A stretch of DNA of 64,000 nt from Nitrospirota bacterium (GTDB lineage: Bacteria; Nitrospirota; UBA9217): NCBI GenBank assembly GCA_963749655.1, contig CAVVOB010000039.1, forward strand, positions 33,085 through 97,084, written 5' to 3'. This document shows, one piece after another, positions 4,676 to 43,078 of the stretch. The notes beneath the pieces are model-generated. The model did no database searches, was not told the DNA's origin, and saw only the letters and a list, made by a program, of their open reading frames with translations. The position numbers and the translations under genes were made by a program. The first letter of the stretch is position 1. Every line of letters begins with the position of its first letter.

Positions 4676-4757
4676 GGTTATTCATCGGAGATATAAGCCT
4701 GCAGCTGAGGTCTGACTTCTACTCTTACTTCTGACTCCTGACTCCTGACCTGCCTAC

Positions 4758-14556: not shown

Positions 14557-14916
14557 TTCTTATTATTTCCTCCCTTTGGGCTATTTAAATGATGTTTTTT
14601 AATTCAACAGGCCTGTTATTTTGGATGAACTATTGCGTATTGCAAATGCCCAGTTACATTTTGCACGGCTGGTTATGTTATTATAATGACAGAGAAGTTG
14701 TCAAGAAAAATGTGCTTCATTGTGGTTGAATTATCATAAATTCATTAACTCATGTTATAAGAAACACTTATGAACAAGGTGAGGTTTCCCGATGAGGCGG
14801 GGGCATGTCGGACGCCCGGTAACTCCTCGATCGACCTTAATTGTCATCAGGGAAACGAAGACAGGAGTCGACGGAGAAGGATACGACAGGCAAAGCCCCA
14901 GCCACTGATCGACCTC

Positions 14917-22105: not shown

Positions 22106-22314
22106 GAGCACCTCGAAGCATCGGATTTTTCAGCAAGGGAAACCGATTCTCCCCCTTTCAAGGGCGGATGATCGGTCCTCTGCAGGACCTGCGAATTTAT
22201 TCTTGCCGTGCGAAATAAAATTGACATATTCCCTGAAGGATGTCAAGGGCAAAAGTGCGTGTGTTGATCGGAAAGCCTGTTGAATTTCGACGATGCCTAT
22301 GCTATGTTACGATC

Positions 22315-23766: not shown

Positions 23767-23842
23767 TAATTCTGAAAATTTTTTTCTCGATTGCTTGCTG
23801 CTTTTCCCCGGCCACCGGCCCCAGGCCCCCGGCCCCTTCTTT

Positions 23843-29868: not shown

Positions 29869-29967
29869 GGGAGAGGTTACGGAGCTGGTGCCCGTCCCGG
29901 CCTTCAAAGCCGTTGTCACCGTGCGAGAGTACGGTGAGGTGAGTTCGATTCTCATGCTCTCCCGCCA
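29869..29967 (+). tRNA. selC: tRNA-Sec (anticodon UCA)
   Basis: GGGAGAG/CTCTCCC acceptor with G discriminator and CCA; TCA at 29904-29906; long variable arm TCACCGTGC-GAGA-GTACGGTGA; T-arm GTGAG-TTCGATT-CTCAT; selA/selB nearby. Confidence 0.93.
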
Positions 29968-29969
29968 TT
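29944..29969 (+). repeat. attL core (tRNA 3' end)
   Basis: TTCGATTCTCATGCTCTCCCGCCATT, identical to 42000-42025. Confidence 0.93.
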
Positions 29970-30014
29970 CAAATTCAGTATTTCAATGAGTTAACGCGGA
30001 GAATGCCTTTATTT

Positions 30015-30032
30015 TCTCCCCGTGCTCTCCCC
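30015..30032 (+). repeat. Candidate integrase arm-type sites (left)
   Basis: TCTCCCCGTGCTCTCCCC, 17/18 identical to 41940-41957. Confidence 0.65.
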
Positions 30033-30155
30033 GCAATTCATCGGCTTGCGGTCTTTCTTTCCCTGATAGGTCAACTTCATGGTTACAATGATGTCCATGA
30101 GCTGACACCTTTCGTTCTTTTCGTTCAGTCTTTTTAAAACACGGTCGAGTTTGTT

Positions 30156-30195
30156 ATAGCCCCGGGTTTCTCTGGTTCGGAGATCCCGGGGCTAT
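30156..30195. terminator. Strong stem-loop downstream of the small minus-strand ORF
   Basis: ATAGCCCCGGG...CCCGGGGCTAT, 11-bp perfect arms. Confidence 0.6.
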
Positions 30196-30203
30196 TGGTC
30201 TTA

Positions 30204-30296
30204 CTACAGCAGACCGCAGTCTTTGAGAAATCTTATGATGCTGATCAAAATCTTTTCTACCGGCGTTCTTCTCGTCTGCTTTCGTCTTTTTTTCAT
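30204..30296 (-). CDS. 30-aa basic amphipathic peptide
   Basis: AAAGGAGG RBS; MKKRRKQTRRTPVEKILISIIRFLKDCGLL; double stop TAG TAA; hairpin follows. Confidence 0.5.
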   Translation of the reverse strand: MKKRRKQTRRTPVEKILISIIRFLKDCGLL

Positions 30297-30462
30297 TTGT
30301 GCCTCCTTTCCTGAACGTTTTTAACATAAAATTTGAAAGTGTTTGGGCCGGACAACGGCACCTGCCACACTCCCGCTACGGTAGCAAATTTCCCTGCCAC
30401 GTTCTGGCAGGTGATGGAACTTTCTTTTTCACTGCTCACCTTCCATCCCTTTTTTATTTCCC

Positions 30463-30497
30463 TTGACAATAGCTAAAATATTAGCTATTATAATAGC
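30463..30497 (+). promoter_or_regulatory. Sigma70 promoter overlapped by palindromic operators
   Basis: TTGACA-17-TATTAT; perfect palindromes AATAGCTAA-AATA-TTAGCTATT (30468-30489) and GCTATTATAATAGC (30484-30497). Confidence 0.75.
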
Positions 30498-30520
30498 CAT
30501 CGCATCGGAAAGGAGGCGGC

Positions 30521-30721
30521 ATGGTCAATTTGAAGTTCAAGACGGTTTCGGAGTTGAGGCAGCAGGCGACGCAGATCGTGGCCGAGGTCGAGCGAACCGG
30601 CAAGCAGGTTATCATCACGAAGAACGGGAAGCCAGTGGTAGTGATTCAGCGTGTTACAGAAGAAGAGTTGAGTCTGGACAAACCGAAGAAAAAAAATAAA
30701 AAAGGGAGGAAACGAAAATGA
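30521..30721 (+). CDS. Phd/YefM-family antitoxin
   Basis: TVSELRQQATQIVAEV..VIITKNGKPVVVI; AAGGAGG RBS. Confidence 0.85.
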   Translation: MVNLKFKTVSELRQQATQIVAEVERTGKQVIITKNGKPVVVIQRVTEEELSLDKPKKKNKKGRKRK

Positions 30722-31005
30722 AAAGGATCAAGAAAACGAACCACAGAACAAATCGGGTGCGCCTGTTCGTGCAAATAGTTCGAAGGGCCGCGAAGCAGCC
30801 TAGTCGCACATCCGCCGATACAATCACCGCAGTAAAACAGCTCTTTTCGATCGCTGAAAGGTTGGAGCACAAATACGACTGGCTTTTGATGAGAAGACTT
30901 TTTGCAAAACGGGTGTTTAAGCGCGGCACATACGATCATTTAATGTCTGAACTGGTGCACCTGTTACCGCTCTACCGTGAGAAAATAAAACCATTGGCAG
31001 CTTAG
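30718..31005 (+). CDS. Hypothetical basic protein coupled to the Phd gene
   Basis: ATGA overlap, GGAGG RBS, followed by a hairpin. Confidence 0.6.
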   Translation: MKRIKKTNHRTNRVRLFVQIVRRAAKQPSRTSADTITAVKQLFSIAERLEHKYDWLLMRRLFAKRVFKRGTYDHLMSELVHLLPLYREKIKPLAA

Positions 31006-31010
31006 GCGAC

Positions 31011-31043
31011 CAGGCCCCCCGGATGCTCAGGGGGGCTTTCTCT
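31011..31043 (+). terminator. Terminator after the Phd operon
   Basis: GCCCCCC-loop-GGGGGGC followed by TTTCTCTT. Confidence 0.55.
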
Positions 31044-31051
31044 TCTCACTG

Positions 31052-31720
31052 ATGAAAACGAAAATGAAAATGGAAAGGGTGAAAAAAATGGAGAAGATAA
31101 AAAGACCATCGGAGTTTTTGACTGCAGATGAAGTTAAAGCGCTTCTCCGGGTGCCGGATCGTCGCACGCTCCAGGGAAGGCGTGATTATGCTCTCCTGCT
31201 CCTGATGCTGTCGAGTGGCTTGAGAAAAGCGGAGGTGTGCAGCTTGAACATCGAGAACCTTACCACGTATAGGAATCAGACGGTTGTGGATGTGATCGGC
31301 AAAGGTAAGAAGCAACGGCGTGTCGCCCTCACTGAAGAGGTCATGGAAGCGGTCCTTGACTATCAGAAGTCGCTCAAGAACAGCCTGCCTCAGCTTTTCG
31401 CGGAAGGAGCTGGCGAGGTCGGCGCCCGGCCGCTCTTCTTCACCTTGGGCGAGCGCGGGAATTGCGAACCTGTCCCGCTCACGCACAAGGCGGTTGATTG
31501 CCTGATGCGGAGGGTTAAGAAGTCCGCGTTGCTTTCGAAGCGGATCACGCCGCACACCACGCGCCACACGTTCGCAACTTCCCTTCTGGACAAAGGCGTT
31601 GACCTGCGGACCGTCCAGGAGCTTCTAGGGCATAGCGATTTACGTACAACGACGGTGTACCTGCATACGTCCGATGAAAAGAAGATCGATGCCGTTGCAC
31701 GGCTGCAGTTCGGTCTGTAG
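31052..31720 (+). CDS. Short tyrosine recombinase (catalytic domain only; Xer/FimB/ResD-like)
   Basis: SGLRKAEV, GKGKKQR, PHTTRHTFAT and LLGHSDLRTTTVY give a complete R-K-H-R-H-Y set. Confidence 0.9.
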   Translation: MKTKMKMERVKKMEKIKRPSEFLTADEVKALLRVPDRRTLQGRRDYALLLLMLSSGLRKAEVCSLNIENLTTYRNQTVVDVIGKGKKQRRVALTEEVMEAVLDYQKSLKNSLPQLFAEGAGEVGARPLFFTLGERGNCEPVPLTHKAVDCLMRRVKKSALLSKRITPHTTRHTFATSLLDKGVDLRTVQELLGHSDLRTTTVYLHTSDEKKIDAVARLQFGL

Positions 31721-31734
31721 AGAAAGGCCTGAAA

Positions 31735-31765
31735 TGGGTCATATAATCCTATCTTTTATTACCCA
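31735..31765. other. Candidate recombinase core site (12-7-12 imperfect palindrome)
   Basis: TGGGTCATATAA-TCCTATC-TTTTATTACCCA; an additional inverted arm lies at 31825-31839. Confidence 0.6.
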
Positions 31766-31870
31766 ACGGGGAAGTTCAGCAACGTCGGTTCGCGGACTTA
31801 CCGGGGCTCGACCTCTGGCACGAATGGGTAATAAAAGATCATTTCTCAAACTCGAAAGGACGGGTGAACT

Positions 31871-32290
31871 GTGAAAGAACTTGACGAAGAATCAAGAAGA
31901 CTTTGGGAATCACTGAGACAGGCAGCCCTTCCAACAAACAATTATCCTACAGTCCAAACAACGGCTTTATACGATTTTGGAATAATTTACGACAGCCGAT
32001 TAGATGTATGGAAATGCCCGATTTGTGATTTTGCTTCAACAGCTCTAAAAGTCAATAACCATGTGAATAAAAAGCACCCTGAATGGCGCGCTGAAGGAAG
32101 AAAGAAACAAGAAGAACATTTCCAAAGATTACGCATGGAGCATCCGGAATGGTACACAAGAAATCATAAATGCCCTCAATGCGATAAAGCATTTAAGAGT
32201 AATAGTGCTCTTTGTGTTCACGTATATCAGAAACATTCCAAACATCAAAAGGGCGAATCGGCGGTGAAAGCCCAGTCTCAGATTGATTAA
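31871..32290 (+). CDS. Protein with two classical C2H2 zinc fingers
   Basis: CPICDFASTALKVNNHVNKKH and CPQCDKAFKSNSALCVHVYQKH. Confidence 0.8.
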   Translation: MKELDEESRRLWESLRQAALPTNNYPTVQTTALYDFGIIYDSRLDVWKCPICDFASTALKVNNHVNKKHPEWRAEGRKKQEEHFQRLRMEHPEWYTRNHKCPQCDKAFKSNSALCVHVYQKHSKHQKGESAVKAQSQID

Positions 32291-32528
32291 AATAACGGGG
32301 GCCTTCTCCCCTGAAAGCGAGGTGTCAGGTTGCATCAGGAAACCCGGATGAGAAAATATCGCAAGGTGGCACAGAGAGAAAGGGTATAGACGAGGGGCAA
32401 CGGTTTAAAGTTTTGGTAGAATGAATAGTGGGCGGGGGGGGCCAGTCGTGGTTGTGTGGTGTCGGCGCGGGCCATGAGTACGGGGGGAAATAGGTTTTGA
32501 CGTCAGGTAGAAAGGAGATGGATCGGGT

Positions 32529-33017
32529 ATGAACGAGGAAAGTATCGAGACGCAGGAAACAGACGAAAAGCCGCTGAAAGTAACCGGGAAAGAGCCGGAA
32601 AAGGCCATTAAACAGGCTGCAATGTTGGCTCTCGAGCAAAGCGGCTTCAGTCATCTCGCAATCTCAAAAGCCATAGGATACCATGAAAAAAGCGTGAGCC
32701 GAGCGTTACCTGATCTTAGGAAGAGGAGCCTTGCCGCGCCTCGAATGGTCAAGCTCGCTTCGAAAACTGTCGCCGCGGTTATGGAAGGCTACCACGGAAA
32801 AGAGGTCGAGGAGCCGCAGCCGGACGGATCGGTGAAGAAGGAAGTCGTAATTGATCATCGTGTCAAAGCCTCCGACGCCATGCGTGCCGCCGAGCTCGTG
32901 TATTCCAGGTATGAGCCGGTCAAGCAGGATGCTGCAGGGTCCGGGTCCGCGCCGTCGTTTACGTCGATCACCATCAATCAGCAGTTTATTGAGGGGCTGC
33001 AGTTGCCCGACAAATAG
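32529..33017 (+). CDS. HTH protein, possible terminase small subunit
   Basis: HTH-like segment GFSHLAISKAIGYHEKSVSRAL, helical middle, and a C-terminal SITINQQF beta-tail; AAAGGAG RBS. Confidence 0.45.
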   Translation: MNEESIETQETDEKPLKVTGKEPEKAIKQAAMLALEQSGFSHLAISKAIGYHEKSVSRALPDLRKRSLAAPRMVKLASKTVAAVMEGYHGKEVEEPQPDGSVKKEVVIDHRVKASDAMRAAELVYSRYEPVKQDAAGSGSAPSFTSITINQQFIEGLQLPDK

Positions 33018-33273
33018 CCTGCAGAAAGCGCGGCCGGTCATATGATCGAACCAAGGAAAGCATTCTTTTTCAAAATAGGCCCCCCTTGGGTCGCCGGTTC
33101 GCGCGATTGGCCGGCGCTGTGGAGCGGTCCAGATGCTATCTACTTCGTTGCCTCACATTTTCCCAGGATTTGCCCCCCTTCTTCCGCCTTGATCTCGGAT
33201 TCCGAATTCTCGTATCTCTTTTTGGGGCACCGAATAAAATTTTTCAAAATTCCAGATAGAAAGGACAGATAAC

Positions 33274-34516
33274 ATGGCTATTGACGTTAACGCGCAGGTC
33301 GCATCTCAGATGGAATTAATAAATACCTCGATCGCGCATGCAGTGGGAGAGATGGACACCGTTTATGAAAACCTAGAGTCCCTTTCTGCTGCAGTTTATC
33401 CCCCGTTCATCATTCCGTCAGAGCCCGCCTTACCGGTTACCACGATTACGGTCTCGGCAGAGGCTCCCGATGACCTCGAGATTCAGGGAGAGCTCGTCGC
33501 GATCAGCGCCGCGGCTCCGGAACCCTTCAAGCCAGCCGGAAAGGGTGGAGGCCTCGACCAGGTCGAAAAGACGTTTCTTGACTGGATCCCCAGGCTCGAG
33601 GATATCACCAAAGAAGAAGCTAAGTTGCTTAGAGGATATGACAGCGCACTCATCGACGCCATGACCGCAAAGCTCCTGCGAGACATCGAGAGTGGCGGGA
33701 CCGGCCTTTCTTCCGCAGTCGCACAGGCGATTCCGGACAGGCAAGCGCAACGCGACGCACAAATTTACCAGGATGCTCGGGACAAAATGGCTTCAACATT
33801 TTCCGCTCCAGGATGGGAGCTTCCGGACAGCGTTCTGGCGGCAATGAGTGCAGGATCTGAACGTGAAGCAGGCGAATCTGAAGACCGACCGATCCCGCGA
33901 AGCCCTCGTTGATTCGTACAAGATGGCGGACGCCAATACGAAGTGGGCGATTGAGCAGGGTATTGTCCTCGAGAGCAAGCTCATGGAGATGTTCAATCAG
34001 GCCGCAGATCGAGTGATCCGCTACGCCTTGGCGAAAATGGGTCTCAGCTCGGTCATTTTCAAAAATCTGATCGATGCCTATCTTGCACAGGTCGACGCCG
34101 TGCTCAAGGAAGCCCAGTTAAAAAACGAGATTCAGAGAACGGAGATTAGCGCCTATCTCGGGAAGTTGTCTTACTACAAGACCATGGCGGACGTTGGGCT
34201 CGGGAAGGTAGACGCCCTGATCAAGAAATATGGCGTGGACATCAGCAAGTATACCGCACAGATTTCTTTGTCCGAAGTTCAGGGACAGATAAATCTTGCA
34301 CAGGTCACGAGAGATACACAGAGTGCTCTCCTTACCTGGAAGTCATCCCTTGAAGCCCTTCAGCAGAATCTCGTATCGAACCTGCACTATACGCAGATCC
34401 ATTCAGCGACGGTCTTGGGGGAGACGCAGATTCTTTCAAACTATGTGGCGGCAATGTCGAACAGTATGAACGCTGTGATGCAACTGTCGGTTACCGAGAC
34501 GATAGCGGGCGCATAA
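33274..34516 (+). CDS. Alpha-helical phage virion-like protein (one frameshift near 33850)
   Basis: Two ORFs join into about 410 aa; the segment GGTGLSSAVAQAI.DR..RD...F.A.GWELP.SVL resembles phage structural proteins (from recall, unverified). Confidence 0.45.
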
Positions 34517-34659
34517 GCGCGACTGTACATTTCCCCAATTGGTGCTTTTTTCTTTCTGCCAGTTGTGATAGACTTTCGCCATATTGATCGCGGGCTTCAA
34601 TCACAAGAGAATACTGAAGAACTTGACGTTTACACGCCTCATTGTTTCAGGGGGGGGGT

Positions 34660-35880
34660 ATGAAAAGTAAAATAATTGCAGTGGCGATCATTTTTGTGAT
34701 TCTTGTTTTCGCAGGAGGCTACGCCTATTACACCGTATACGAAAGATCACCGGAAAGAATTTATTCGAAAAACAAGAATACCGTCGTCTTTATTGCAGCG
34801 TATGACTTCGGAGGAACTCCGATAAAATTTGGTAGTGGCTTCATCGTGGATAAGAACGGAACCATTGCCACAAACTATCACGTTATTAACGATGCGGGAG
34901 ATATCGTGATAAAGACAATAGACGATAGAATCTTGGCTGTTGAGGCGATAAAATATTTCGACGAAGAAAAAGACTTGGCACTCATAAAAATCAAGAAGTC
35001 GAAAGAGTATGAGTTAACTGCGGTGGACATTGGAGATTCCGAAAAAATGGTTGTTGGTGAAAAGGTCTATACAATTGGAAATCCTAAGGGGCTGGAAAGT
35101 ACATTTTCAGAAGGAAATGTTAGTGGCGTGCGTCAATGGAAGCAGGATGTGAAGGTAATTCAAATAACGGCCCCACTTTCGCCTGGCAGTAGCGGCGGGC
35201 CAGTTCTCGATAAACATGGCCGTGCAGTGGGGTTGTCGACGTTTATTTTAATGGAGGGCCAAAATCTCAACTTTGCGATACCTTTTAATTACATTAAAAA
35301 TGAAATCACTAAACCACAAATAGCATATACACTGATGCCAAAGGAACCAGCATGGAATTTGTTTCATTCTGTAAACGACTCCGATAGATATCTAGAGTCA
35401 TGGGATGAAACATTTGTTGACACCAGCAATATCACAACGATTGATGAAAACCTGAAGGGCGTATGGATAAGCACGAGAACCCGATATGGAGAACAAAAAG
35501 CACCTTATCCAATTAACGTTATTGGCGCCAAGCCTCATTCTACAACAAAAACAAAATACGGCTATGTATATTGCGATTGCGTTGGTAAAACAATTACGAC
35601 GCTCTTATTGGGTTTTACTCTTGATGATAAGGGAACTATAACACCGTTGGAAAAGAGAGTGGTGTGGAAAGATTTACTTGAAAAATTTACTGCGGATGTA
35701 AATGAGCAGAGAAAGAAGTTGCAAAAGGCAAAAGACGACCTAATAATATTTAGAAGTAGTGCTGCAGAGGTAAAGTACGATACCGAGTCCGCTATATTGG
35801 AAAAATTTGAGAAAAGCGAAGCTGAAATGCATAACTTATCTAGCCGATTGATCGGGAAGGTGTGTAACATTGCCGATTGA
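34660..35880 (+). CDS. Membrane-anchored trypsin-like (S1C) serine protease with C-terminal domain
   Basis: N-terminal TM; GSGFIV, TNYHV, KDLAL and PGSSGGPV give the His-Asp-Ser triad; low GC. Confidence 0.88.
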   Translation: MKSKIIAVAIIFVILVFAGGYAYYTVYERSPERIYSKNKNTVVFIAAYDFGGTPIKFGSGFIVDKNGTIATNYHVINDAGDIVIKTIDDRILAVEAIKYFDEEKDLALIKIKKSKEYELTAVDIGDSEKMVVGEKVYTIGNPKGLESTFSEGNVSGVRQWKQDVKVIQITAPLSPGSSGGPVLDKHGRAVGLSTFILMEGQNLNFAIPFNYIKNEITKPQIAYTLMPKEPAWNLFHSVNDSDRYLESWDETFVDTSNITTIDENLKGVWISTRTRYGEQKAPYPINVIGAKPHSTTKTKYGYVYCDCVGKTITTLLLGFTLDDKGTITPLEKRVVWKDLLEKFTADVNEQRKKLQKAKDDLIIFRSSAAEVKYDTESAILEKFEKSEAEMHNLSSRLIGKVCNIAD

Positions 35881-35999
35881 TGATTCTTTATCGTTGACCC
35901 GTTGTCCTCCTAGTAAACAATAGTTAATGTCACATCGAAGCTGTACTCCACAGCCGGCCCGTGAAGTTTGGAGAAACCACGACGTGAGGTGGTCAAGAA

Positions 36000-36626
36000 A
36001 TGGAACTGAAAGACAGAATAAACGCTGTTATCCGGACACCGAAATATAAGAAAGCATTTGAACGATACTCCCAGATAGTGAAACCTGAGTCGCGGTCTGG
36101 AATGTGGATGTCCGGATCTGAAATTTTCATACACCCTCTTTCTCAAGAAGCCAACAACCTCTGCGTCGCATTCAAGATACCCTATCCATTCCATCCCAAT
36201 TCAATCGTTCCTGATGGATTCCCAGCCGTTATTCCTATAGCCTCCCGCATTGAAGAGGGAAAATATCGAGGAAAGAATTTCGTAGGTCCAGGAACGGATT
36301 ATTGCGTACATGTAAAAATAGATGTGACACAGCCGATCACAAAAATTCAAAATGAGATAAAGGCAATGTATGAACGTTTTAATAAAGGGGGCGACATTAA
36401 ACGGAGAAGTAGAAACAGAACCAACAAAAAAATCGAGGGCGGCATATGGGAAGTTTATGACCAAGTTACTCTGGGAAAGCTCACGCCCTATCAGGTAGCC
36501 AAAAAGTTCGGCATGCAGCGTAAGCCAGCTGATGACAAAAAAGCCGATAAAATATATCGCCGTGTGTTGGATGCATATACAAAGGCACGTGAAATGGTTG
36601 CTGATGTTCAAGAAGGTCACATATAA
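36000..36626 (+). CDS. Hypothetical protein with a possible C-terminal HTH
   Basis: 208-aa ORF with GAGG RBS; C-terminal segment LTPYQVAKKFG. Confidence 0.55.
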   Translation: MELKDRINAVIRTPKYKKAFERYSQIVKPESRSGMWMSGSEIFIHPLSQEANNLCVAFKIPYPFHPNSIVPDGFPAVIPIASRIEEGKYRGKNFVGPGTDYCVHVKIDVTQPITKIQNEIKAMYERFNKGGDIKRRSRNRTNKKIEGGIWEVYDQVTLGKLTPYQVAKKFGMQRKPADDKKADKIYRRVLDAYTKAREMVADVQEGHI

Positions 36627-36725
36627 CGCAAGGACTTTTAACGTAGTGCTATCAGTCCCTCTACAAGCTTAAATATTTCCTGTATCCTCCAACCATCGAA
36701 ATTGAAATGATAGGAGGTAACGGGA

Positions 36726-36998
36726 ATGAGAATCACAACGAAAGAGTTCGTCAGCTCCGACCTGTATTTGTCCGCTGCTGTTTCCATCCTGCTTCAAACT
36801 CAACCAAACTTCAGAGTAGAAAATAATCGAACCCTGTTTGTCTTCGAGGTATCAGACCGGCTATATAAGGCGATGAGCGACTACAATTCCGGGATCGCAA
36901 TCAACACCCTGGAATATGTCCAAGTCCTCAAACGCCTGAAAAGCGAAATGATGATGCGCCGGTCCTTGGAGAAAACGGGGAGCTATCATGCTGGATAA
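36726..36998 (+). CDS. DUF5659-like small protein
   Basis: SSDLYLSAAV..RTLFVF..DYNSG..IN..EY...LKRLKS pattern; AGGAGG RBS. Confidence 0.65.
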   Translation: MRITTKEFVSSDLYLSAAVSILLQTQPNFRVENNRTLFVFEVSDRLYKAMSDYNSGIAINTLEYVQVLKRLKSEMMMRRSLEKTGSYHAG

Positions 36999-37105
36999 TC
37001 AGGCCCTCCCCGACTGTCCTCGTTCACTCCATCTCTCGTTGTGGGCTCTGAGTGCGCTGAAGGAAGGCAAGAGGGTGCCCAGAGATCGGCGCCCTTCTTC
37101 CGTCG

Positions 37106-37945
37106 TTGCCTGAAATCGGACAACCTTCCCATACCTCTGGAGCGAGCCCGCAACTTGATAATGGCTTCACCAGAATAGCAAACGAAATACTCGAGGCGTT
37201 GATCAAGACTAAACTCAACGGTTATGAGTGGCGCATTGTCATTGCTATTCTTCGAAAGACCTACGGGTTCAGAAAGAAGACTGACTGGATCTCAAATAGC
37301 CAATTCGTAGAGATGACAGGAATTAGGAAGTCTCACGTATCCAGGGCTATCAAAGAATTATGCGAGAGAAACATCCTTACACGATCAGGGCTGAAGGTTG
37401 GCCTGCAGAAAAATTACTCGCTATGGAAAGACCATCCGAAAAGGAAGAAGTTACCAGAAATGGTAACAGTTACCAAAGGCGGTAACTTAAACGAAAAGTT
37501 ACCAAAACTGGATCAAGAGTTACCACCGGCGGGGCACACAAAAGAAAATATACAAAAGAAAAAGAATACCTGCGTTTCACCGGACAGTTCAACGCCCTCT
37601 GTTCCCTTACGGAAGGCACGAGTACGTCACAAGCCTGCAGATCCCCGCGTGTCGGAAATCATGAATTACTTCTTCGAAGTCTGCCAAGAGATCAAGGGAT
37701 TCAAGCCGATGATCAATGGCGGCAAAGATGGCGCACTGGTCAAGGTTGCACTGCAGGCTATGGATATGACGGACATCAAGGCAATCTTACGCTTCTTCCT
37801 GAAGAGTCCAAAGTCAAAGGATGTTGGCGTCTCGTTATCCGCGGCCTTATCAGCGCACACTGTGAATATGTACCGAGCAGGAGAAATAAAACAGGGTGAT
37901 CCAGGACTCGGCAATCCTAACGCAGGGAGAGATCCAGGCATATGA
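37106..37945 (+). CDS. Lambda O-like phage replication initiator
   Basis: LDNGFTRIANEILEAL..AILRKTYGFRKKTDWISNSQFVEMTG matches the phage rep O N-terminal domain. Confidence 0.88.
   Translation: MPEIGQPSHTSGASPQLDNGFTRIANEILEALIKTKLNGYEWRIVIAILRKTYGFRKKTDWISNSQFVEMTGIRKSHVSRAIKELCERNILTRSGLKVGLQKNYSLWKDHPKRKKLPEMVTVTKGGNLNEKLPKLDQELPPAGHTKENIQKKKNTCVSPDSSTPSVPLRKARVRHKPADPRVSEIMNYFFEVCQEIKGFKPMINGGKDGALVKVALQAMDMTDIKAILRFFLKSPKSKDVGVSLSAALSAHTVNMYRAGEIKQGDPGLGNPNAGRDPGI
37450..37568. repeat. Replication origin iterons plus A-rich tract within the O-like gene
   Basis: GTTACC-N6-GGTAAC at 37450 and 37469, half-conserved copies at 37498 and 37519, then ACAAAAGAAAATATACAAAAGAAAAAGAA. Confidence 0.75.
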
Positions 37946-38757
37946 CACAGAGACAAGATGAGATTGACCAGCTCATTGCGACAGAAGAACGGTTGAAGAA
38001 CTACCGCGGCGAGGATGAAATTATCATCTCAAATGACATGCTCGACCTGCTACACGCCAGATATCAGCAGGTTCACACGTTCGAGCTCGTTCCTGGTTTT
38101 CCGGGGCTCGACAAGTCGATTAAGCATTTTCTCGGTGGCGAGCTGGTCGTTATTTCCGGACCTACGAAGCACGGCAAGACTCTCCTCGCTCAGACCTTAA
38201 CGCGCAACTTCTGGGCACAGAACCATATGGGCGCATGGTTCAGTTACGAGGTTCCGGTCCATCAATTCCTTCAACAGTTCGGGGATGTTCTACCGGGATT
38301 CGTCGTACCGAAGAGCCTCAAGGACAACTCACTTTCGTGGATCATCGAGCGCGTGCATGAGGCTAAGCTGAAATATGATATCAAGTACGTTGTCATCGAC
38401 AACACGCACAATGTCATAAACCTGACTGTGAATAACCTCTCTCAGGTGATGGGTGAGTTTCTCAAGGGCGTGAAGAAGATGGCACTTCGCTTCAACGTCG
38501 CCGTGTTTCTCCTCCATCACCTGACTAAGATCAAGTTGGGTAACGACGATACAATTGACTCCAGCCTTCTCCGAGACTCAAGCCTCGTGGCTCAGACAGC
38601 TGATACCGTCATGTTCGTATGGCGTGATAAGGACACTATACTCAAGCCGAACCAGGGATACGTGAAGGTCACGGAAAACCGGCGATATGGAATCATGAAC
38701 CATGTTGTTCCGCTCGTGAAGATCGGGAATTTCCTCGAAGAGCAGGAGACGTTCTGA
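37942..38757 (+). CDS. DnaB-like (SF4) helicase, C-terminal domain only
   Basis: Walker A GPTKHGKT, FSYE, Walker B VVID, LRDSSLVAQTADTV and ENRRYG. Confidence 0.85.
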   Translation: MTQRQDEIDQLIATEERLKNYRGEDEIIISNDMLDLLHARYQQVHTFELVPGFPGLDKSIKHFLGGELVVISGPTKHGKTLLAQTLTRNFWAQNHMGAWFSYEVPVHQFLQQFGDVLPGFVVPKSLKDNSLSWIIERVHEAKLKYDIKYVVIDNTHNVINLTVNNLSQVMGEFLKGVKKMALRFNVAVFLLHHLTKIKLGNDDTIDSSLLRDSSLVAQTADTVMFVWRDKDTILKPNQGYVKVTENRRYGIMNHVVPLVKIGNFLEEQETF

Positions 38758-38761
38758 GGGT

Positions 38762-39364
38762 GTGTTGACAATGACCGTAACGAAGACCATACAAACAGGC
38801 ATCGATTGGGAAGCAGCTGCAGAAAAATGGCGCCGGGAAGTTGATCTCCCCCGTATTCGTCGCGTCATCCAAGAATACAAGCAGGATATGGGTCGAGAGG
38901 GTCAATATCTTCGGCTTTTTGCTCTCTTCGATCAACTTGAGGAAGCCAAGGATGATTTGCACTGGAGGCGGAAGCGTTACGAGGCGAATGCATCTGGCAA
39001 CCGGCCGTATGTCGAGCGGGTCTTGATAGCGCGATGTATCCTCGAGGACGAGCGACGGATTGAAAAGATGCGGCAAGAGATCAGTTTCATTCAGACAGCG
39101 CTCTTTCAGCCACAACAAATGAAGGGAGACAGGATCACCCCCAAGATGGTCGAAAGGGCCAAGGAATTTCCAATATCGAACCTGGTAGAGGCGCGCCGCG
39201 GAATAGCACGTTGCATCTTCGGACATGAGGACCAACACCCGTCAATGAGCATCAAGAACAACTTCGCTCACTGTTTCTCTTGCGGAAAAACAGCGGACGT
39301 GATTGAAGTCTATCAACACCTTCATGGGGTGACGTTCCCCCAAGCCGTGAGGGCGATGCAATGA
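38762..39364 (+). CDS. Protein with C-terminal CHC2 (primase-type) zinc-binding domain
   Basis: CIFGHEDQHPSMSI...HCFSCGKTADVI...TFPQAV. Confidence 0.8.
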   Translation: MLTMTVTKTIQTGIDWEAAAEKWRREVDLPRIRRVIQEYKQDMGREGQYLRLFALFDQLEEAKDDLHWRRKRYEANASGNRPYVERVLIARCILEDERRIEKMRQEISFIQTALFQPQQMKGDRITPKMVERAKEFPISNLVEARRGIARCIFGHEDQHPSMSIKNNFAHCFSCGKTADVIEVYQHLHGVTFPQAVRAMQ

Positions 39365-39582
39365 CTACTTTTGAACAGGCAGTCTCAGATTACCAGATTC
39401 GATGTTTGTGCGAGGCGCAAATGAGTCTTTCAAAAGTCCGGTCAAGCGGCTTTCCCCTTCCGGATGATGTGGCCCTTGAAGTTCAGGGGATCATGAGCAC
39501 GATAACGTCGCTTATTGGACGGCTGGAAGACCGGTTGTCGCCCGCAGGCCCGGGGCCGGGGCTGGAAGGAGAACGCGGATGA
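39361..39582 (+). CDS. Hypothetical protein
   Basis: ATGA overlaps at both ends within the operon. Confidence 0.55.
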   Translation: MTTFEQAVSDYQIRCLCEAQMSLSKVRSSGFPLPDDVALEVQGIMSTITSLIGRLEDRLSPAGPGPGLEGERG

Positions 39583-39995
39583 CACCATCAAGCGCTATCA
39601 AAATCGAATGCGCTGTGTGCCGGCGCGATCGGGGACCGTGCACGAGCAAGCACTGTGCCCTGAAGCTGGCCGGGACATCCCTTGAGCGGATCAAGGCGCA
39701 CTGCCGTGACTGTGCTCCGGACCATCGGCCGGAAGCGTGCACCGGTCAGATCATCGGCACTCAGGCGAAGGCCCTCAACTCGCTGTATGGGATCCCCCTC
39801 GTCGACGGCAAGGCCGAATGCCCTCTCTTTCCGTTCCGGTTCGGCAAGAACCAAAATATCCACCGGACGCTGTCAGAGGACCAGAAAAAAGTAAATGTCG
39901 CACGCTTGCAAACATATCGTTTCCGGAAAAATGCCGCGTTTTCCCCCAGCCAGAGGACAGAGCACGGGGCCGGGGCGGGAATCGGGCAAATTTAG
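39579..39995 (+). CDS. Cys-rich phage-type hypothetical protein
   Basis: AIKIECAVC, IKAHCRDC and ECPLFPFRFGK. Confidence 0.65.
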   Translation: MTPSSAIKIECAVCRRDRGPCTSKHCALKLAGTSLERIKAHCRDCAPDHRPEACTGQIIGTQAKALNSLYGIPLVDGKAECPLFPFRFGKNQNIHRTLSEDQKKVNVARLQTYRFRKNAAFSPSQRTEHGAGAGIGQI

Positions 39996-40020
39996 ACCCT
40001 GAAGGGGGGTATTCTCGGCA

Positions 40021-40662
40021 ATGAAGAAAGCGCCGTATTTCTCGGTAGCATTGGATCCGTCGACCCGGGTTATCTTCGTCGTCCAGACTGAAGGGGCCAG
40101 GGAAGCGCTCGTCGGCATTCTCACTGCAAGCGGTCGCACGGTCACCACTGAGACAATCGAGGATGAACAAAGCGCCGTCCATGCGCATTTCCGGGGCAAG
40201 CTGGTTGCGATCCTGCCAGCCAACGACGTCACGGGAAGAAGGCATGCGCAGCTTTTCGCCGGGAGACTCGCGGGAATAGCTGAAGCTGTCAAGGTAATAG
40301 AGCTCCCCGGCCTCCCTGTCAGCGGGGATGTTTGCGACTGGATCGCCCAGGGGGGCACCGCTGCCAGTCTCGCCAAGCTGGTTCAGCAAGCCCTGTTTTG
40401 GACGCCTTCGCAGCAGTCGACAGCGTGCGGCTTCCGGTCAGACACCCGGGCGCGCGGCAAGGGCGCCGGTACCGCCGCAGCAGACCTGCTGGTCACCCTG
40501 CTATCTGAGGGACCGAGGCCCGCAAAGGAGGTCCAGGAAGCCGCGGTAGAGGCGGGCCTGTCCTTCGGGACTCTTCGCCGGGCCGCTGATCGACTCGGCA
40601 TAACGCGCAGGAAAGCGGGCGGTAGGTTCGGCGGTGATCCCCGCTGGTACTGGTCCCGCTGA
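40021..40662 (+). CDS. Degenerate TOPRIM-like domain fused to a winged-helix
   Basis: VAILPANDVTG...LPGLPVSGDVCDW, then LSEGPRPAKEVQEAAVEAGLSFGTLRRA. Confidence 0.6.
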   Translation: MKKAPYFSVALDPSTRVIFVVQTEGAREALVGILTASGRTVTTETIEDEQSAVHAHFRGKLVAILPANDVTGRRHAQLFAGRLAGIAEAVKVIELPGLPVSGDVCDWIAQGGTAASLAKLVQQALFWTPSQQSTACGFRSDTRARGKGAGTAAADLLVTLLSEGPRPAKEVQEAAVEAGLSFGTLRRAADRLGITRRKAGGRFGGDPRWYWSR

Positions 40663-40804
40663 AGATGCTGAAGGTACTTCCTCTTCAATGTGTCACCTTC
40701 AGGGATGGGGTACGAGCATCTTCAGGAAAGGTGTCGAGGTCGTCGGCTTGACAAAGATCGAGGATCGGAATAAAATCGCACCCTCATCAATTCTGGGGGT
40801 GGCT

Positions 40805-41978
40805 ATGAAAGACCTCAAGGGTGCAATTCGGTGCCGGCGCTGCGGTGCTGCCATGTCCGACAGTACCGGAACCTGCCCGAAGTGCGGTCAAGCGTGGTGC
40901 TATGTCGAGTTGTATCAGAGCGGACGGAAGTTCAAGTATTACCGTGACAGCAAGAACCCCAATGAGAAACTTGGTTTCCTCCAGGCTTTTTCGCTTCTTC
41001 AGGAGATCAATGATGCGATCAAGAAGAACCAGCGGGAGAAAAGCGGCTTTAATCCCGCGGATTGGCAGCCTGAAAGCGTCAAGGCAAGACAGCTTGCCAA
41101 TGTGCTCGAACGCTGGCTAGAGCAGAAACGAGAAGAGGTAAAGGGCGGCGAACTCTCCTATGGCACCGTTCACGCATATCAGTCTCGAGTAAGCAATCAC
41201 CTGTCCAAACTCGGGCACCTCGACGTTCGGGAAATCAAGTTCTCGGACCTCGAAAATTTCAAAGACAGCCTTCCGAAAACAATCAAGCTGAAAACGAAGC
41301 GGGAGATACTGAACACGCTTCACGCCGCCATGCGCTGGATGTGGCGGAAGGGTATCATTTCTGATGTGCCCCCCTTCCCTATCATCAAGGGTAACGATTC
41401 TGAACCTCGCATAGCGTTGTCGATCGAGGACCAGGTCAAAGCCCTCAATGCAATACCGGAACAGCATCGAGACGTGTTTGAATTTGAATTCGAAACAGGT
41501 ATTCGGCAGGAGAGACGTGCGCCCTCAAGATCAAGGACGTTGACTTTCAGAACCGAACCATGAGAGTGCAGCGAACCTTTACCATGCGGAAACTTAGAGA
41601 GGCCGACAAAGAGGCTCACAAAAAAAACGTGCCCCTGTCAGATCGGGCGCTGGCGATCGCAAAGGCCAGGTCCGCCGGCCGGTTTCCCGAAGATTGGCTT
41701 TTCCTGCATCCCAGGACCGGGATGCATACACGATTCATCGTCTTGCGTTGCTCTGGAACTCGACCGGCCTTCCCTGCACCCACTATGAAGGCAGCCGTCA
41801 TTCTTTCTGTACGCAAATTTCAGAGGTCGCCGACGGTGTAGCAGCCCAAGCGCTCATGAGGCACACTGATCCGCGCTCTACAGCGCGATACACGCACAAC
41901 AGGACGGAATATCTCCGGGACGTGCTCTCTCGAAGAAGCTCTCCCCGCGCTCTCCCCATAGGAGCGAAAAAGTCGTGA
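40805..41978 (+). CDS. int: Phage-type tyrosine integrase (frameshifts near 41505 and 41720)
   Basis: N-terminal CxxC/CxxC; TGIR, KKNVPLS, YEGSRHSF and LMRHTDPRSTARY; stops 21 bp before attR. Confidence 0.88.
41940..41957 (+). repeat. Candidate integrase arm-type sites (right)
   Basis: TCTCCCCGCGCTCTCCCC, matches 30015-30032. Confidence 0.65.
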
Positions 41979-41999
41979 GAAATCAACAACAGGGATTAT

Positions 42000-42025
42000 T
42001 TCGATTCTCATGCTCTCCCGCCATT
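42000..42025 (+). repeat. attR core (duplicated tRNA-Sec 3' end)
   Basis: Identical 26-mer to 29944-29969. Confidence 0.93.
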
Positions 42026-42132
42026 ATTTAATTTGAAATAAAATTATTTAAAAGGTCCATACCGTGGTCGGTACTGTATGAACGCTTAGAGATAACCGTT
42101 TTAAGTTTACAGGCCAAGGAGAAGTCACCCTT

Positions 42133-42980
42133 TTGAAAATCGTTTTTTATTCCGGCCTAATATTAATTTTAGTTTATAGCTGTCTCGGATGCGATACTTG
42201 TCGTTTAGCCTTGAAAAGACAAAACTATGACGAAGCAATTAAAGAATGTTCAATGCAGATCAAGAAATACGATTGGACCAGTATACAGGTAACAGCTCAC
42301 GTTAATCGCGGGGTTGCCTATTTTAGCAAAGGATTTTATGATGATGCAATATCCGACTTCAATTCGGCTATTAGCTTGAACTCTAAGTATGAACTTGCTT
42401 ATGTTAATCGCGGCCTTGCATATTCAAGGAAGGGACTTTTTGATAAAGCAATGTCAGATTTCACTTTAGCGATCAATTTGAACCTTACATATGAGTTTAC
42501 TTACCTTGCACGCGCAAGTGTTTATGCGAAGAACAATCAATATGATAATAGCGCCAGTGACTTAACCAAAATAATAGACATATCACCCAAAAATTATTTA
42601 GCATACGCATTGCGTGGTTCCCTTTATCGCAAACAAGACAAGCTCGCACTTGCTCTTGATGATTTCAACAATTCTATAAAATTAAATTCTAAGGACACCA
42701 GGGTATTTAATAACCGTGGGGAGATTATTTGTTTACAGGCAATTATGATAAGGCATTAAGTGATTTCCTGAAAGCTATGGAATTGAACCCTAAGATCGCT
42801 GTTTCTTATTACAATATGGCTTGCTTGGCGGCAATCCATAATAAAATTGACGATGCGTGTAGTTGGTTTAAAAAATCTATTGAATTAGGGTATGACGAGT
42901 GGGGTCTAATAAAAAAAGATACAGATTTAATTAACCTTCGAAATGAAACGTGTTATGTTGAGGTAATGATGGGTAAGTGA
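42133..42980 (+). CDS. Exported TPR-repeat protein (frameshift near 42725)
   Basis: Signal peptide; repeated AYVNRGLAY...A.SDF..AI.LN units; C-terminal YYNMACLAA; low GC. Confidence 0.82.
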
Positions 42981-43028
42981 TTATTACTGGCATAGTGCCG
43001 TGATCATACCGCAAAGGTTGTGACTCAC

Positions 43029-43078
43029 TGATAAATCATCAACAGGCCAGAATTCAATTTTCATGCTATCCCACAATC
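43029..43078 (+). repeat. Degenerate second attR-like relic
   Basis: 43053-43078 matches the att core at 20/26; 43029-43046 matches 41976-41993 at 16/18 with the same 6-nt spacing. Confidence 0.7.

Follow-up and report, generated by a model that had tools for sequence, protein, structure and literature searches.

A tRNA-Sec-integrated element with a lambda-O-type replicon in an uncultured Nitrospirota bacterium, possibly a helper-dependent phage satellite

In a 64-kb stretch of DNA from an uncultured Nitrospirota bacterium (GCA_963749655.1, contig CAVVOB010000039.1), hereafter called the window and used for all coordinates, an insert of 12,056 bp with a perfect 26-bp repeat at either end lies directly 3′ of the tRNA-Sec gene. 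What kind of element is this, and by which route might it spread? The integration target (29869..29967, + strand, anticodon TCA) was identified by ARAGORN and by Rfam model RF01852 (62.8 bits, gathering score 47). The gene owes its 3′ end to the 26-nt repeat, whose left copy (attL, 29944..29969) overlaps it. Alignment with the right copy (attR, 42000..42025) confirmed the perfect direct repeat reported by the sequence-only reading (26 of 26 positions identical), and every family-supported ORF of the element is on the + strand, matching its statement that nearly all genes run in one direction. Family searches (26 ORFs against Pfam at E≤0.01 and PHROGs at E≤0.001, 24 ORFs against NCBIfam) detected no capsid, portal, TerL, tail, lysis or conjugation family, as had also been stated; repeats and searches together bear out a discrete element without virion or conjugation genes. 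The genes for integration and replication are its own, but genes for a virus coat are missing, so for its spread it probably depends on help from outside, as known phage satellites do. We see about an even chance that it is an integrative, self-replicating and putatively helper-dependent "hitcher" similar to PICIs, tycheposons and VEIMEs, most likely a phage satellite.

The gene row ends in a tyrosine integrase (40634..41978, +), composed of pieces matching phrog_1 and PF00589. Its distal position and its strand agree with the earlier description, but the reading frame changes twice in the assembly, so that three frames had to be mapped on an intact 425-aa orthologue from genome G041. One of the two single-base shifts lies in a G run near 41505-41512, the other near 41727; taken together, the pieces contain the catalytic motifs. 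The gene probably starts with an ATG at about 40805, upstream of which lies a promoter-like sequence (TTGACA-17-TAAAAT, 40748..40776, +; 11/12 in the promoter scan). A third frame change, likewise a single-base shift, affects the phrog_10969-like gene near 33843-33848, intact relatives of which encode 414 aa. The same kind of split is seen in at least three genes of the host within the window: a Kef-type Na_H_Exchanger lies in two frames (profile 3-196 and 172-373), and the profiles of Complex1_49kDa and Proton_antipo_M are likewise divided, into 14-91/92-161 and 1-165/161-280, respectively. In an ISL3 transposase the break coincides with an A8 run. Because host genes of the same window are broken too, the breaks in the element are most likely assembly indels and not decay. 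If they were real, the copy in the window would be incapable of excision, which would speak against a satellite.

True pseudogenes are what a different explanation would require, namely that the element, left over from a satellite or prophage, is decaying, no longer mobile and now passed on only vertically. This we consider quite improbable. The three frame changes fall into two key genes, an ISL3 element is close by, and directly downstream there is a degraded older insertion. This remnant of about 1 kb (42026..43078), recognized by repeats, Pfam, composition and alignment, is related to the element and comprises a split TPR gene of low G+C content and, at its end, a third, degenerate copy of the att core (43053-43078, 77%), whose left flank resembles the integrase-side flank of attR. 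The tRNA-Sec gene is a hotspot, with extra att-core copies downstream in four of the six same-genus regions compared, a pattern shared with tycheposon islands that favors the hitcher interpretation. Decay of islands at this site does occur, as shown by G002 and G014, in which ordinary host-type genes and no integrase lie between att copies. On the other hand, the two att repeats are still identical, all breaks concern single bases and have counterparts in the host genes, the remaining ORFs of the element are all open with their coupled 4-nt overlaps intact, and the nearest relatives are of comparably small size and possess intact integrases.

These relatives support the assignment of the element to a family of small elements, not to deletion remnants. 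Kinship with full-length prophages was not borne out, the closest relatives found (G019 and G041) being small islands. The G041 element (13.3 kb) has the identical tRNA-Sec att core and the intact orthologous integrase; identities to the element in the window are 65-79% for the integrase and 83% for the small recombinase sRec. Only the ends are common to both (about 76-77% nucleotide identity), while the interior is different and in opposite orientation. The G019 element (20.1 kb) is integrated in tRNA-Glu, bounded by a 30-bp tRNA-Glu repeat, and is syntenic for the genes of Phd, sRec, the zinc-finger protein, DUF5659, RepO, the DnaB-like ATPase and the Zn-ribbon protein; its additional cargo is a NACHT gene. 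Each of the two contains one ORF of 89-90 aa with weak matches to TerS PHROGs. In G011, the same Phd-sRec end is joined to a primase-helicase and TerS/TerL. A 9.6-kb element at tRNA-Sec (G011 C1) carries a distal integrase that is 33-42% identical and a fused ClpP-protease/HK97-capsid gene, and from this neighborhood it follows that the integrase lineage travels with satellite-type gene sets. As the interiors of the G041 and G011 elements differ, the combination of an O protein, DnaB, one transcriptional direction and two recombinases, which had been proposed to define a distinct family, is not a fixed signature.

The tRNA-proximal end begins with a promoter-like sequence (TTGACA-17-TATTAT, 30463..30497, +; 11/12 in the promoter scan) over a near-palindromic 12-nt repeat (TRF array 30468-30497), a putative operator/promoter of the following Phd/YefM-family antitoxin gene (30521..30721, +; 66 aa, TIGR01552, 41.8 bits at a cut-off of 20.8). 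Phd homologues adjoin sRec in G019, G011 and G041. The stop codon of phd is overlapped by 4 nt by orf95 (30718..31005, +; ORF list), which matched no family in four libraries and, judged by its position, may encode the toxin partner. The subsequent gene (31052..31720, +) encodes sRec, a tyrosine recombinase of 222 aa that consists of the catalytic domain only (PF00589, 2e-36, aa 22-209) and has the size of Xer proteins and invertases; with XerC/XerD and FimB/E-type models of NCBIfam it scored below their cut-offs. Together with the distal integrase, which also matches PF00589, it confirms the two tyrosine recombinases named before. Copies that are 63-87% identical occur in MAGs titled Nitrospirota, Desulfobulbia, Brocadiaceae and Nitrospinia. 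Downstream of sRec, repeat and promoter analysis and comparison with G019, G011 and G041 revealed a conserved non-coding unit (31735..31850, +). It contains a perfect 15-nt inverted repeat (31751-31765 and 31825-31839) with the motif TGGGTAATAAAAGA (2 matches, 0.35 expected), a third half-site at 31735 and a rightward promoter-like -35/-10 pair. The unit is kept in G019 and G011; in G041 it is inverted and adjoins int. It presumably serves as operator/promoter heading the long rightward gene block, the first gene of which encodes a C2H2 zinc-finger protein (31871..32290, +; 139 aa, zf-C2H2_4, 29.2 bits, 51% identical to its G019 homologue), a candidate regulator.

In phage lambda, the origin of replication is situated within the gene of the initiator O. 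The element has a similar arrangement: RepO (37106..37945, +) shares the O N-terminal domain (PF04492, 3.7e-32; TIGR01610, 91.5 bits), and its gene holds an origin with a cluster of four iterons (37449-37525) followed by an A-rich tract (37538-37562). All four exact AGTTACCA matches of the window fall into this cluster (0.51 expected; four were reached in none of 100 shuffles), so the O-type initiator with iterons was rightly recognized. A helicase-related gene is immediately downstream as in lambda, but instead of a P-type loader the element has its own DnaB-type ATPase (37942..38757, +; 271 aa, PF03796, 3.7e-15; phrog_239, phrog_19), overlapping RepO by 4 nt, and added primase-like genes. 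The term "DnaB helicase" is appropriate as far as the C-terminal ATPase domain is concerned, but this is covered only in part (profile 115-220 of 255) and the DnaB N-terminal domain was not found with Pfam. The ATPase is present in three of 401 Nitrospirota genomes, its own genome counted. As for the "primase pieces", there are matches to CHC2 and Toprim, but in two separate ORFs: a 200-aa protein with a C-terminal CHC2 zinc ribbon (38762..39364, +; PF01807, 1.5e-07; 194-aa homologue in G019) and a Toprim/primase-like protein of 213 aa (40021..40662, +; phrog_6088, 4.4e-07; NF005477, 6.1e-07). Between them are two small coupled ORFs with 4-nt overlaps taken from the ORF list (39361..39995, +; 73 and 138 aa, the second Cys-rich), for which no family was found in Pfam or PHROGs; a homologue of orf73 sits within a 201-aa ORF of G041.

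With its replicon, its Phd operon and a recombinase of resolvase size, the element has a complete maintenance set, which would suit an integrative plasmid-like cargo shuttle as well. Such an element would be no parasite of phages and would have borrowed phage-type genes for replication or exclusion; after excision and replication from the RepO origin, it would be transferred without capsids by vesicles, natural transformation or conjugative mobilization via an unrecognized oriT. We regard this explanation as possible but unlikely. The protease gene as cargo, the exchange of interior modules among elements having common ends, and the lack of a recognizable terminase or capsid-remodeling gene are in its favor, and according to the tycheposon preprint, cargo-type elements have integration and replication modules in common with PICI-like ones (10.1101/2020.12.28.424599). 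By contrast, relaxase, coupling protein and other conjugation families were not detected (Pfam, PHROGs, NCBIfam), and close relatives of the DnaB-like gene are lacking among plasmids: only two of 72,556 records match, both chromosome-sized and with 24-25% identity. Moreover, capsid or TerS/TerL genes occur in sibling elements and a podovirus late-block family is kept.

This family, phrog_10969, is represented by a gene in two frames (33274..34516, +), identified by its PHROGs profile match and by mapping on intact relatives. Two relatives of 414 aa are 55-57% identical and G019 has a copy of 522 aa. The claim of a virion-like gene is hence correct with regard to the family, but the gene is frame-broken in the window. 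The family comprises 1145 representatives at E≤0.001, viral members make up 88-94% of its nearest Atlas clusters, and 42 of 50,697 phage records contain homologues. Where the genomic position was inspected, in two of these records (LKA5 gp56 and Podoviridae sp. MW202615), the homologue belongs to the late/structural block and immediately precedes a giant protein; it is a podovirus late-block family. Less favorable to a satellite is the structure model, essentially a single helix of 220 residues for which the fold search gave no informative match. The likely candidate for the supposed TerS-like gene is orf162 (32529..33017, +), a conserved HTH protein with nine relatives at 44-61% identity. This claim did not hold up, since orf162 has no terminase or TerS HMM match and its best Foldseek match, the SF6 small terminase (E 0.037; VIA Z 3.9, rmsd 6.7, 55 aligned), is at noise level for a model with a pLDDT of 62.7. 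Nor is orf162 related to the short ORFs of G019 and G041 that weakly match TerS (hhalign probability <1%), and no ORF of the element matched a terminase family. Both results argue against a satellite, and the same applies to AlpA/Stl-type regulators and excisionases, none of which was recognized in Pfam, PHROGs or NCBIfam.

In the genome, 86.6% complete, no HK97 capsid (PF05065), no TerL (PF03354) and no second phrog_10969 copy was found; therefore, no resident helper is visible, which speaks against a satellite and is compatible with the plasmid-like shuttle. Three viral-contig scans (RepO, P0001, orf162 family) yielded no relative, which also counts against the satellite interpretation, and there is neither a virome match nor a junction read for the element. 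Should the element nevertheless be a satellite, a trigger would cause its excision as a circle by the integrase, RepO would fire the origin inside its gene, sRec would resolve multimers and the Phd pair would stabilize carriage. Capsids of a helper podovirus could be diverted by the products of the two genes of phage-late type, orf162, perhaps an analogue of small terminases, and the phrog_10969-like gene, so that the element would be packaged and transferred. The membrane-anchored protease would be carried as cargo, possibly for exclusion or defense.

PICIs usually possess a divergent repressor switch beside the integrase. The integrase of the element, by contrast, is distal to the tRNA gene and co-oriented with the other genes, without an adjoining divergent switch. 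None of the P4-like, PICI, cfPICI and PLE markers testable here is carried, in line with the earlier interpretation. The concept itself has already been described: tRNA-integrated elements of 10-20 kb with a tyrosine integrase, their own replication and cargo or TerS/capsid genes are known as tycheposons, VEIMEs and PICI-like islands (10.1101/2020.12.28.424599, PMC9618062, PMC10085698). In PICIs, size, integrase, autonomous replication, lack of virion genes and accessory cargo near an end correspond to the element, which differs by having no AlpA-type regulator, no pri-rep type primase/replicase and no supported TerS or capsid-morphogenesis gene (PMC10085698). The fused prohead protease-capsid gene of the 9.6-kb G011 sibling recalls cfPICIs, for which such a fusion has been noted in Firmicutes, while the element itself lacks their capsid, portal, connector and TerL genes (PMC10085698). 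Tycheposons are likewise 10-20 kb long, reside at tRNA genes with full and partial tRNA flanks, encode a tyrosine recombinase and replication proteins including DnaB-type helicases and primases, and combine cargo or PICI-like TerS/capsid modules with common integration/replication backbones; repeated integration that pushes older, degenerating copies outward is also seen at the tRNA-Sec site (10.1101/2020.12.28.424599). This likeness is one of description; the hosts are Prochlorococcus and Nitrospirota, respectively, and the element stands out by its lambda-O-type replicon with in-gene iterons, its Phd operon and the second small tyrosine recombinase. VEIMEs share the integrase, replication genes, the lack of a major capsid gene and, in module 2, periplasmic serine proteases comparable to the serine protease of the element, and some have TerS homologues; yet they were described from marine hosts and are defined by concatemers found in virions, and these are described as rolling-circle-like, not in terms of an O-type origin such as that of the element (PMC9618062).

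The trypsin/HtrA-like serine protease (34642..35880, +; PF13365, 3.2e-32; phrog_11383, 2.1e-41) has an N-terminal hydrophobic anchor and a C-terminal part of about 190 aa without an assigned family. Its gene forms the G+C minimum of the element (0.41-0.42), PADLOC matches are confined to the protease domain, and the membrane-anchored protein is probably cargo. Adjacent to it, orf208 (36000..36626, +; Pfam, PHROGs, Atlas clusters) has mainly Nitrospirota hypotheticals among its nearest Atlas clusters, along with some regulator domains that are leads only. A DUF5659 protein of 90 aa (36726..36998, +; PF18903, 27.4 bits) is encoded upstream of RepO, as is its homologue in G019.

The only tRNA gene that ARAGORN detected in the window is tRNA-Sec (29869-29967, plus strand), which was concordantly assigned by Rfam (RF01852, 62.8 bits); no further RNA family emerged from the Rfam search of the window. 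This gene contributes to the perfect 26-bp att repeats that had already been recognised from the sequence alone and that border the element. The left copy, attL (29944-29969), comprises the last 24 nucleotides of tRNA-Sec plus two further nucleotides and is identical to attR (42000-42025), the distance from start to start being 12,056 nt. While the G+C content of the left flank is about 0.56-0.60, that of the insert swings from 0.41 to 0.62. The genes selA (22240-23766) and selB (23795-25744) lie about 4 kb upstream of tRNA-Sec, and the island thus lies at the margin of the gene cluster for selenocysteine incorporation. A third, degenerate copy of the core (43053-43078) is 77% identical. Due to the likeness of its left flank to the integrase-side flank of attR, this copy is the trace of an earlier insertion of a related element, most of which has since disappeared. 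Just past it, a gene for an ISL3-family transposase (43513-44768) with a frame change at an A8 run was found, followed by low-G+C, foreign-looking DNA up to about 47 kb. The right flank (42-64 kb) revealed no synteny with the tRNA-Sec regions of six relatives, so that an unoccupied attB with the same flank was not found among them. A public read run (share 0.06) yielded 16 short contigs, 10 of which were at least 99% alike; the att junctions and the frame-break sites lie outside their coverage.

The gene content was derived from Pfam and PHROGs searches with 26 ORFs and from PADLOC and NCBIfam searches with 24. Every ORF with family support is located on the plus strand, in agreement with the one-strand layout described before. 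Close to attL, a gene for a Phd-family antitoxin (30521-30721; TIGR01552) overlaps by 4 nt with orf95 (plus strand), for which none of the four libraries contained a family. Of a type II toxin-antitoxin pair of the Phd/YefM type, the antitoxin is present, and no recognisable toxin was found downstream of it with these libraries. The next gene, sRec (31052-31720), encodes a 222-aa tyrosine recombinase that consists of the catalytic domain alone, has the size of resolvases and invertases and possesses all catalytic motifs. It is followed by the gene of a C2H2 zinc-finger protein of 139 aa (ZnF139), by orf162 (plus strand in the gene order), by a phrog_10969-family gene in two frames (33274-34516) and by the gene of a trypsin/HtrA-like protease with an N-terminal hydrophobic anchor (34642-35880). 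Between the protease gene and a DUF5659 gene lies orf208; the DUF5659 gene directly precedes that of the initiator RepO (37106-37945). Further downstream are genes for a 271-aa ATPase of the DnaB C-terminal-domain type, a 200-aa protein with a C-terminal CHC2 primase zinc ribbon, two small ORFs, a 213-aa Toprim/primase-like protein and finally a tyrosine integrase in three frames (40634-41978; pieces matching phrog_1 and PF00589), which has a promoter-like site of its own (40748-40776). As stated in the sequence-only reading, no capsid, portal, large terminase, tail or lysis family was detected at the thresholds used, nor any relaxase or coupling-protein family (26 ORFs in Pfam/PHROGs, 24 in NCBIfam). 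PADLOC matched only protease, Zn-ribbon and P-loop domains in the 24 ORFs and indicated no defence system.

To map the frame breaks, the intact 425-aa integrase of the related genome G041 was laid on the window. Its residues 4-268 correspond to the first frame (40709-41508), residues 269-341 to the second (41509-41727) and residues 342-425 to the third (41727-41975), the first shift being located at a G run. Two 414-aa relatives of the phrog_10969-like gene product, found among 2328 candidates, map to the two frames of this gene with a switch at about 33843-33848. Host genes revealed the same pattern: the Kef-type Na/H exchanger (27732-29706) is split into overlapping ORFs covering positions 3-196 and 172-373 of the Pfam profile, Complex1_49kDa (4678-6055) and Proton_antipo_M (9711-11718) are split into overlapping frames (14-91 and 92-161; 1-165 and 161-280), and in Na_H_antiport_1 (11822-12616) the first 122 profile positions are missing. 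The frame change of the ISL3 transposase gene is of the same kind. Single-base indels in an indel-rich assembly (39 contigs, 86.6% complete) appear to be the simplest explanation of these splits. A dead remnant, to which a broken integrase and a broken phrog_10969-like gene would belong, is therefore not indicated by the frame breaks, since host genes in the window are split likewise, and we regard it as improbable. The practical lesson is that split genes in such an assembly are evidence of neither decay nor programmed frameshifts.

The proposed O-type initiator with iterons was confirmed by matches of RepO to PF04492 and TIGR01610 above the cut-offs and by the position of the iterons within the RepO gene. 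All four exact matches of AGTTACCA in the window are located at 37449-37525, a span of 77 nt, compared to 0.51 matches expected in 64 kb; none of 100 shuffles reached four. GGTAAC occurs in inverted copies between the iterons, which are followed by an A-rich tract. Iterons within the initiator gene and a subsequent A-rich tract are the layout of the lambda origin; the O N-terminal domain, in-gene iterons and an A/T-rich tract are all present in the element. On the other hand, the suggested DnaB helicase stood only in part: a DnaB-type ATPase is encoded, but it is the C-terminal-domain type. Its gene is rare, being found in three of 401 Nitrospirota genomes including the own genome of the window. 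Similarly, the presumed primase pieces exist as a primase Zn-ribbon protein and a Toprim-like protein, but they are separate ORFs with 4-nt-overlap junctions. Due to these overlaps and an in-frame stop at the same place in the related genome G019, one broken gene was rejected as the main reading, even though both domains share a single frame at one deltaproteobacterial locus. In metagenomes, 188 relatives of RepO were found; among the best 80 of the 188, mostly on short contigs, six had an adjacent DnaB-like gene and three an sRec-like gene.

The virion-like gene is real inasmuch as it belongs to the phrog_10969 family, which is seen in phage late/structural blocks. At E<=0.001 this family counts 1145 cluster representatives; at 1e-10 the number is 319, at 1e-30 it is 12. 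Its nearest Atlas clusters are 88-94% viral. In a model built on a 42-sequence alignment (mean pLDDT 75.8), the C-terminal 220 residues form one helix, and fold searches with the family protein P0001 yielded nothing beyond coiled-coil noise and Caudovirales proteins that are uncharacterised. A longer member, P0012, matched 42 phage records out of 50,697, Pseudomonas phages accounting for 37 of the 42, and tblastn searches of the phage collection with the C-terminal piece of the window's protein and with orf162 yielded no match. In two phage records that were opened (F116-like LKA5 and an uncultured podovirus), the family gene follows annotated structural genes and directly precedes the gene of a giant protein (2166-3863 aa). 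This position, rather than any annotation, suggests that the protein is virion-internal. By contrast, the TerS-like gene, for which orf162 is the likely candidate, could not be confirmed, as orf162 lacks a TerS HMM match and its fold match to the SF6 small terminase is weak. Nine relatives share its HTH and a conserved C-terminal motif; all ten members scanned against PHROGs gave weak HTH matches and no terminase match. In the orf162 model (pLDDT 62.7), an HTH is combined with two long helices and also a beta-hairpin. SF6 small terminase accounts for five of the 19 top ranks listed by Foldseek, at a noise-level E of 0.037 or worse and a VIA Z of 3.9, and a PDB sequence search returned nothing below E 0.2. 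The TerS-like ORFs of G019 and G041 show no relationship to this protein, and scans of viral contigs with RepO, P0001 and the orf162 alignment detected no relative.

The reading that we favour is an integrative, self-replicating element spreading in helper-phage capsids, to which we give an even chance. The element would excise to a circle and undergo theta replication from the in-gene origin; sRec would resolve multimers and the Phd pair would stabilise carriage. Transfer in the capsids of a helper phage might be mediated by orf162 and the phrog_10969-family protein, the protease being possible cargo. In the main rival, the same machinery moves without a phage; we consider it rather unlikely. 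No helper is visible in the own genome, where PF05065 and PF03354 gave no match (control genomes were positive; the genome is 86.6% complete) and phrog_10969 occurs inside the element only; if the helper is virulent, no sign of it is to be expected there.

For Proteobacteria, Firmicutes and marine picoplankton, good descriptions exist of phage satellites and of the 'hitcher' islands related to them. A description of phage satellites in Nitrospirota was not found in a non-exhaustive literature search. PICI components include an AlpA-type (or Stl-type) regulator, and a repressor switch is usual in these islands. The element possesses a PICI-like integrase (phrog_1, PF00589; intact 425-aa orthologue), but neither an AlpA nor a repressor family was detected in the 26 ORFs (Pfam, PHROGs, NCBIfam); ZnF139 or orf208 may be a functional analogue of the regulator. 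Nor did any ORF of the element match PriCT, D5_N or DUF3987 of the PICI pri-rep module, whose role is covered instead by RepO, the DnaB_C-type ATPase and the Zn-ribbon and Toprim proteins. PICIs are furthermore induced, excised and packaged by a helper phage, which they hijack with a small terminase or a capsid-morphogenesis gene; orf162 is a weak candidate for such a gene here. Of the seven core components given for P4-like satellites (integrase, psu, delta, sid, alpA, epsilon and the alpha primase-helicase; PMC10085698), only the integrase was found in the 26 ORFs with Pfam and PHROGs. The same source lists capsid, prohead protease, portal, head-tail adaptor/connector, TerL and TerS for cfPICIs, none of which was detected in the element (Pfam, PHROGs, NCBIfam). 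PLEs, compared by description only, are defined by a Vibrio-specific marker set and differ in host phylum and gene content. A further comparison by description is with the tycheposons, which are integrated at a tRNA gene between the complete tRNA and a partial copy of it and have a tyrosine recombinase and own replication genes (10.1101/2020.12.28.424599). All three are present here, as is serial integration with degenerating older copies (2-5 cores in G002, G014, G001 and G011). In these features the element works like the tycheposons, which also have a hallmark gene cluster in common. The gene content also overlaps with that of VEIMEs, whose module 2 likewise carries periplasmic serine proteases; VEIMEs were recovered as concatemeric DNA from virus particles (PMC9618062), while the comparison here concerns genes alone. 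What the cited parts of the tycheposon, VEIME and PICI descriptions do not contain is the pairing of a lambda-O/iteron origin and a DnaB-type ATPase encoded by the element itself, a Phd and small-recombinase end module of high identity across phyla, and whole interiors that appear to be swapped and inverted between ends that stay constant.

The relatives of the element are, as predicted, small islands, with 20,096 nt (G019), 13,302 nt (G041) and 9.6 kb (contig C1 of G011) between core copies. A DNA search of 41 related genomes, the own genome counted, gave matches in 12, and a collinear series only in G019. The G019 element is bordered by a 30-nt repeat of the tRNA-Glu 3' end and shares Phd, sRec (87%), a conserved non-coding unit, RepO with the DnaB-like ATPase and the Zn-ribbon protein, the zinc-finger protein and DUF5659. 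It also contains an integrase gene, a small ORF with a weak TerS match (phrog_641, 6.9e-06) and a gene for a 522-aa phrog_10969-family protein (3.4e-21). Between its sRec gene and the conserved operator unit lies a gene for a 1943-aa NACHT/STAND NTPase (locus L010, 11582-17413), which looks like inserted defence-type cargo. G041 contains an identical 24-nt core twice at its own tRNA-Sec and shares the ends only: tRNA/attL (87.5% nt), sRec (77% nt, 83% aa) and the integrase region (76% nt, 65-79% aa), the integrase being a single ORF. Its interior carries on the other strand a primase Zn-ribbon gene, a gene for a 600-aa protein without assignment and a 90-aa ORF with weak TerS matches. The C1 element of G011 (locus L140, 1014-10610) occupies the first stretch after tRNA-Sec between two exact core copies and encodes an HTH_3 protein, an HTH_36 protein, a 767-aa fused ClpP-protease/HK97-capsid protein and a 419-aa integrase, likewise distal and 33-42% identical to that of the window. 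By its genes it is a capsid-encoding, satellite-sized island. Additional cores downstream of tRNA-Sec were found in G002 (two), G014 (three exact, two degenerate), G001 (two) and G011 (two exact, two with one mismatch), while the stretches fetched from G003 and G006 contained a single copy. The segments between the copies of G002 and G014 are now occupied by genes of ordinary regulatory and transport functions, and an integrase gene is missing from them. From the repeated copies and degenerate remnants, tRNA-Sec is a reused landing site with serial integration and decay. The locus is a concrete example with clear boundaries, an origin that lends itself to testing (RepO and iterons) and a defined att core reused across the genus. 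As its siblings range from capsid-less to capsid-encoding, the tRNA-Sec of this genus is a natural place to study module swapping between such elements.

Upstream of the Phd operon, a strong promoter-like site and a palindromic repeat overlap. sRec is 63-87% identical at 10 loci (L014-L023) whose titles name Nitrospirota, Desulfobulbia, Brocadiaceae/Brocadia, Nitrospinia and 'delta proteobacterium' MAGs or records, and in a complete Brocadia genome sRec fragments adjoin tRNA-Asp and tRNA-Val. These identities suggest a recent transfer of the gene across phyla. Downstream of sRec, the conserved unit of about 115 nt (31735-31850) comprises a perfect 15-nt inverted repeat, three TGGGT(A/C)ATA half-sites and a rightward promoter-like element heading the long gene block. 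It recurs in L010 (about 11400-11560), L011 (about 8010-8140) and, as reverse complement, L028 (14703-14796). The unit precedes the interior genes in the window as well as in G019 and G011; in G041 it is inverted beside the integrase. The G041 interior is bordered by direct repeats TGGGTAATA...TTGGTAGTGTCT (4210-4245 and 14787-14809 of the reverse-complemented locus). It is conceivable, but in our judgement very doubtful, that the shared ends (attL-Phd-sRec and integrase-attR) form a cross-phylum chassis whose interiors are exchanged or flipped by sRec at TGGGTAATA-type sites, in other words a cassette platform for entire satellite interiors. Hints are, besides the inverted unit and the bordering repeats of G041, the likeness of the window and G041 at the ends only (about 76-77% nt) with a different, inverted interior in G041, and the retention of sRec at 63-87% across MAGs of four phyla while the surroundings all change. 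sRec as a local DNA invertase was kept merely as a low-probability idea, since TGGGTAATAAAAGA is present in the window as a single pair 59 nt apart and the motif 3' of the sRec stop occurs only in the window and G041 (two of eight loci).

A second element of G011, on contig C7 (L011 6489-19931, L012), joins Phd (72%) and sRec (79-81%) to a trypsin-like peptidase and further encodes a RepB-primase/DUF3987 helicase, a TerS-like and a TerL-like protein (phrog_2, 1.1e-20) and an integrase. It also carries a gene for a Rap1a-family immunity protein. The element is flanked by a gene for a Type ISP restriction enzyme and, at its opposite end, by a KilA-N/BstA-like gene. Judging from gene matches, the own genome may hold further elements with the Phd-sRec end module. 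On its contig C18 (about 56.1-67.7 kb), a second Phd (54%), an sRec-like gene (28%) and an integrase-like layout extend over about 11 kb, and contig C28 (about 236.9-237.6 kb) contains a Phd copy (78%) together with an sRec fragment.
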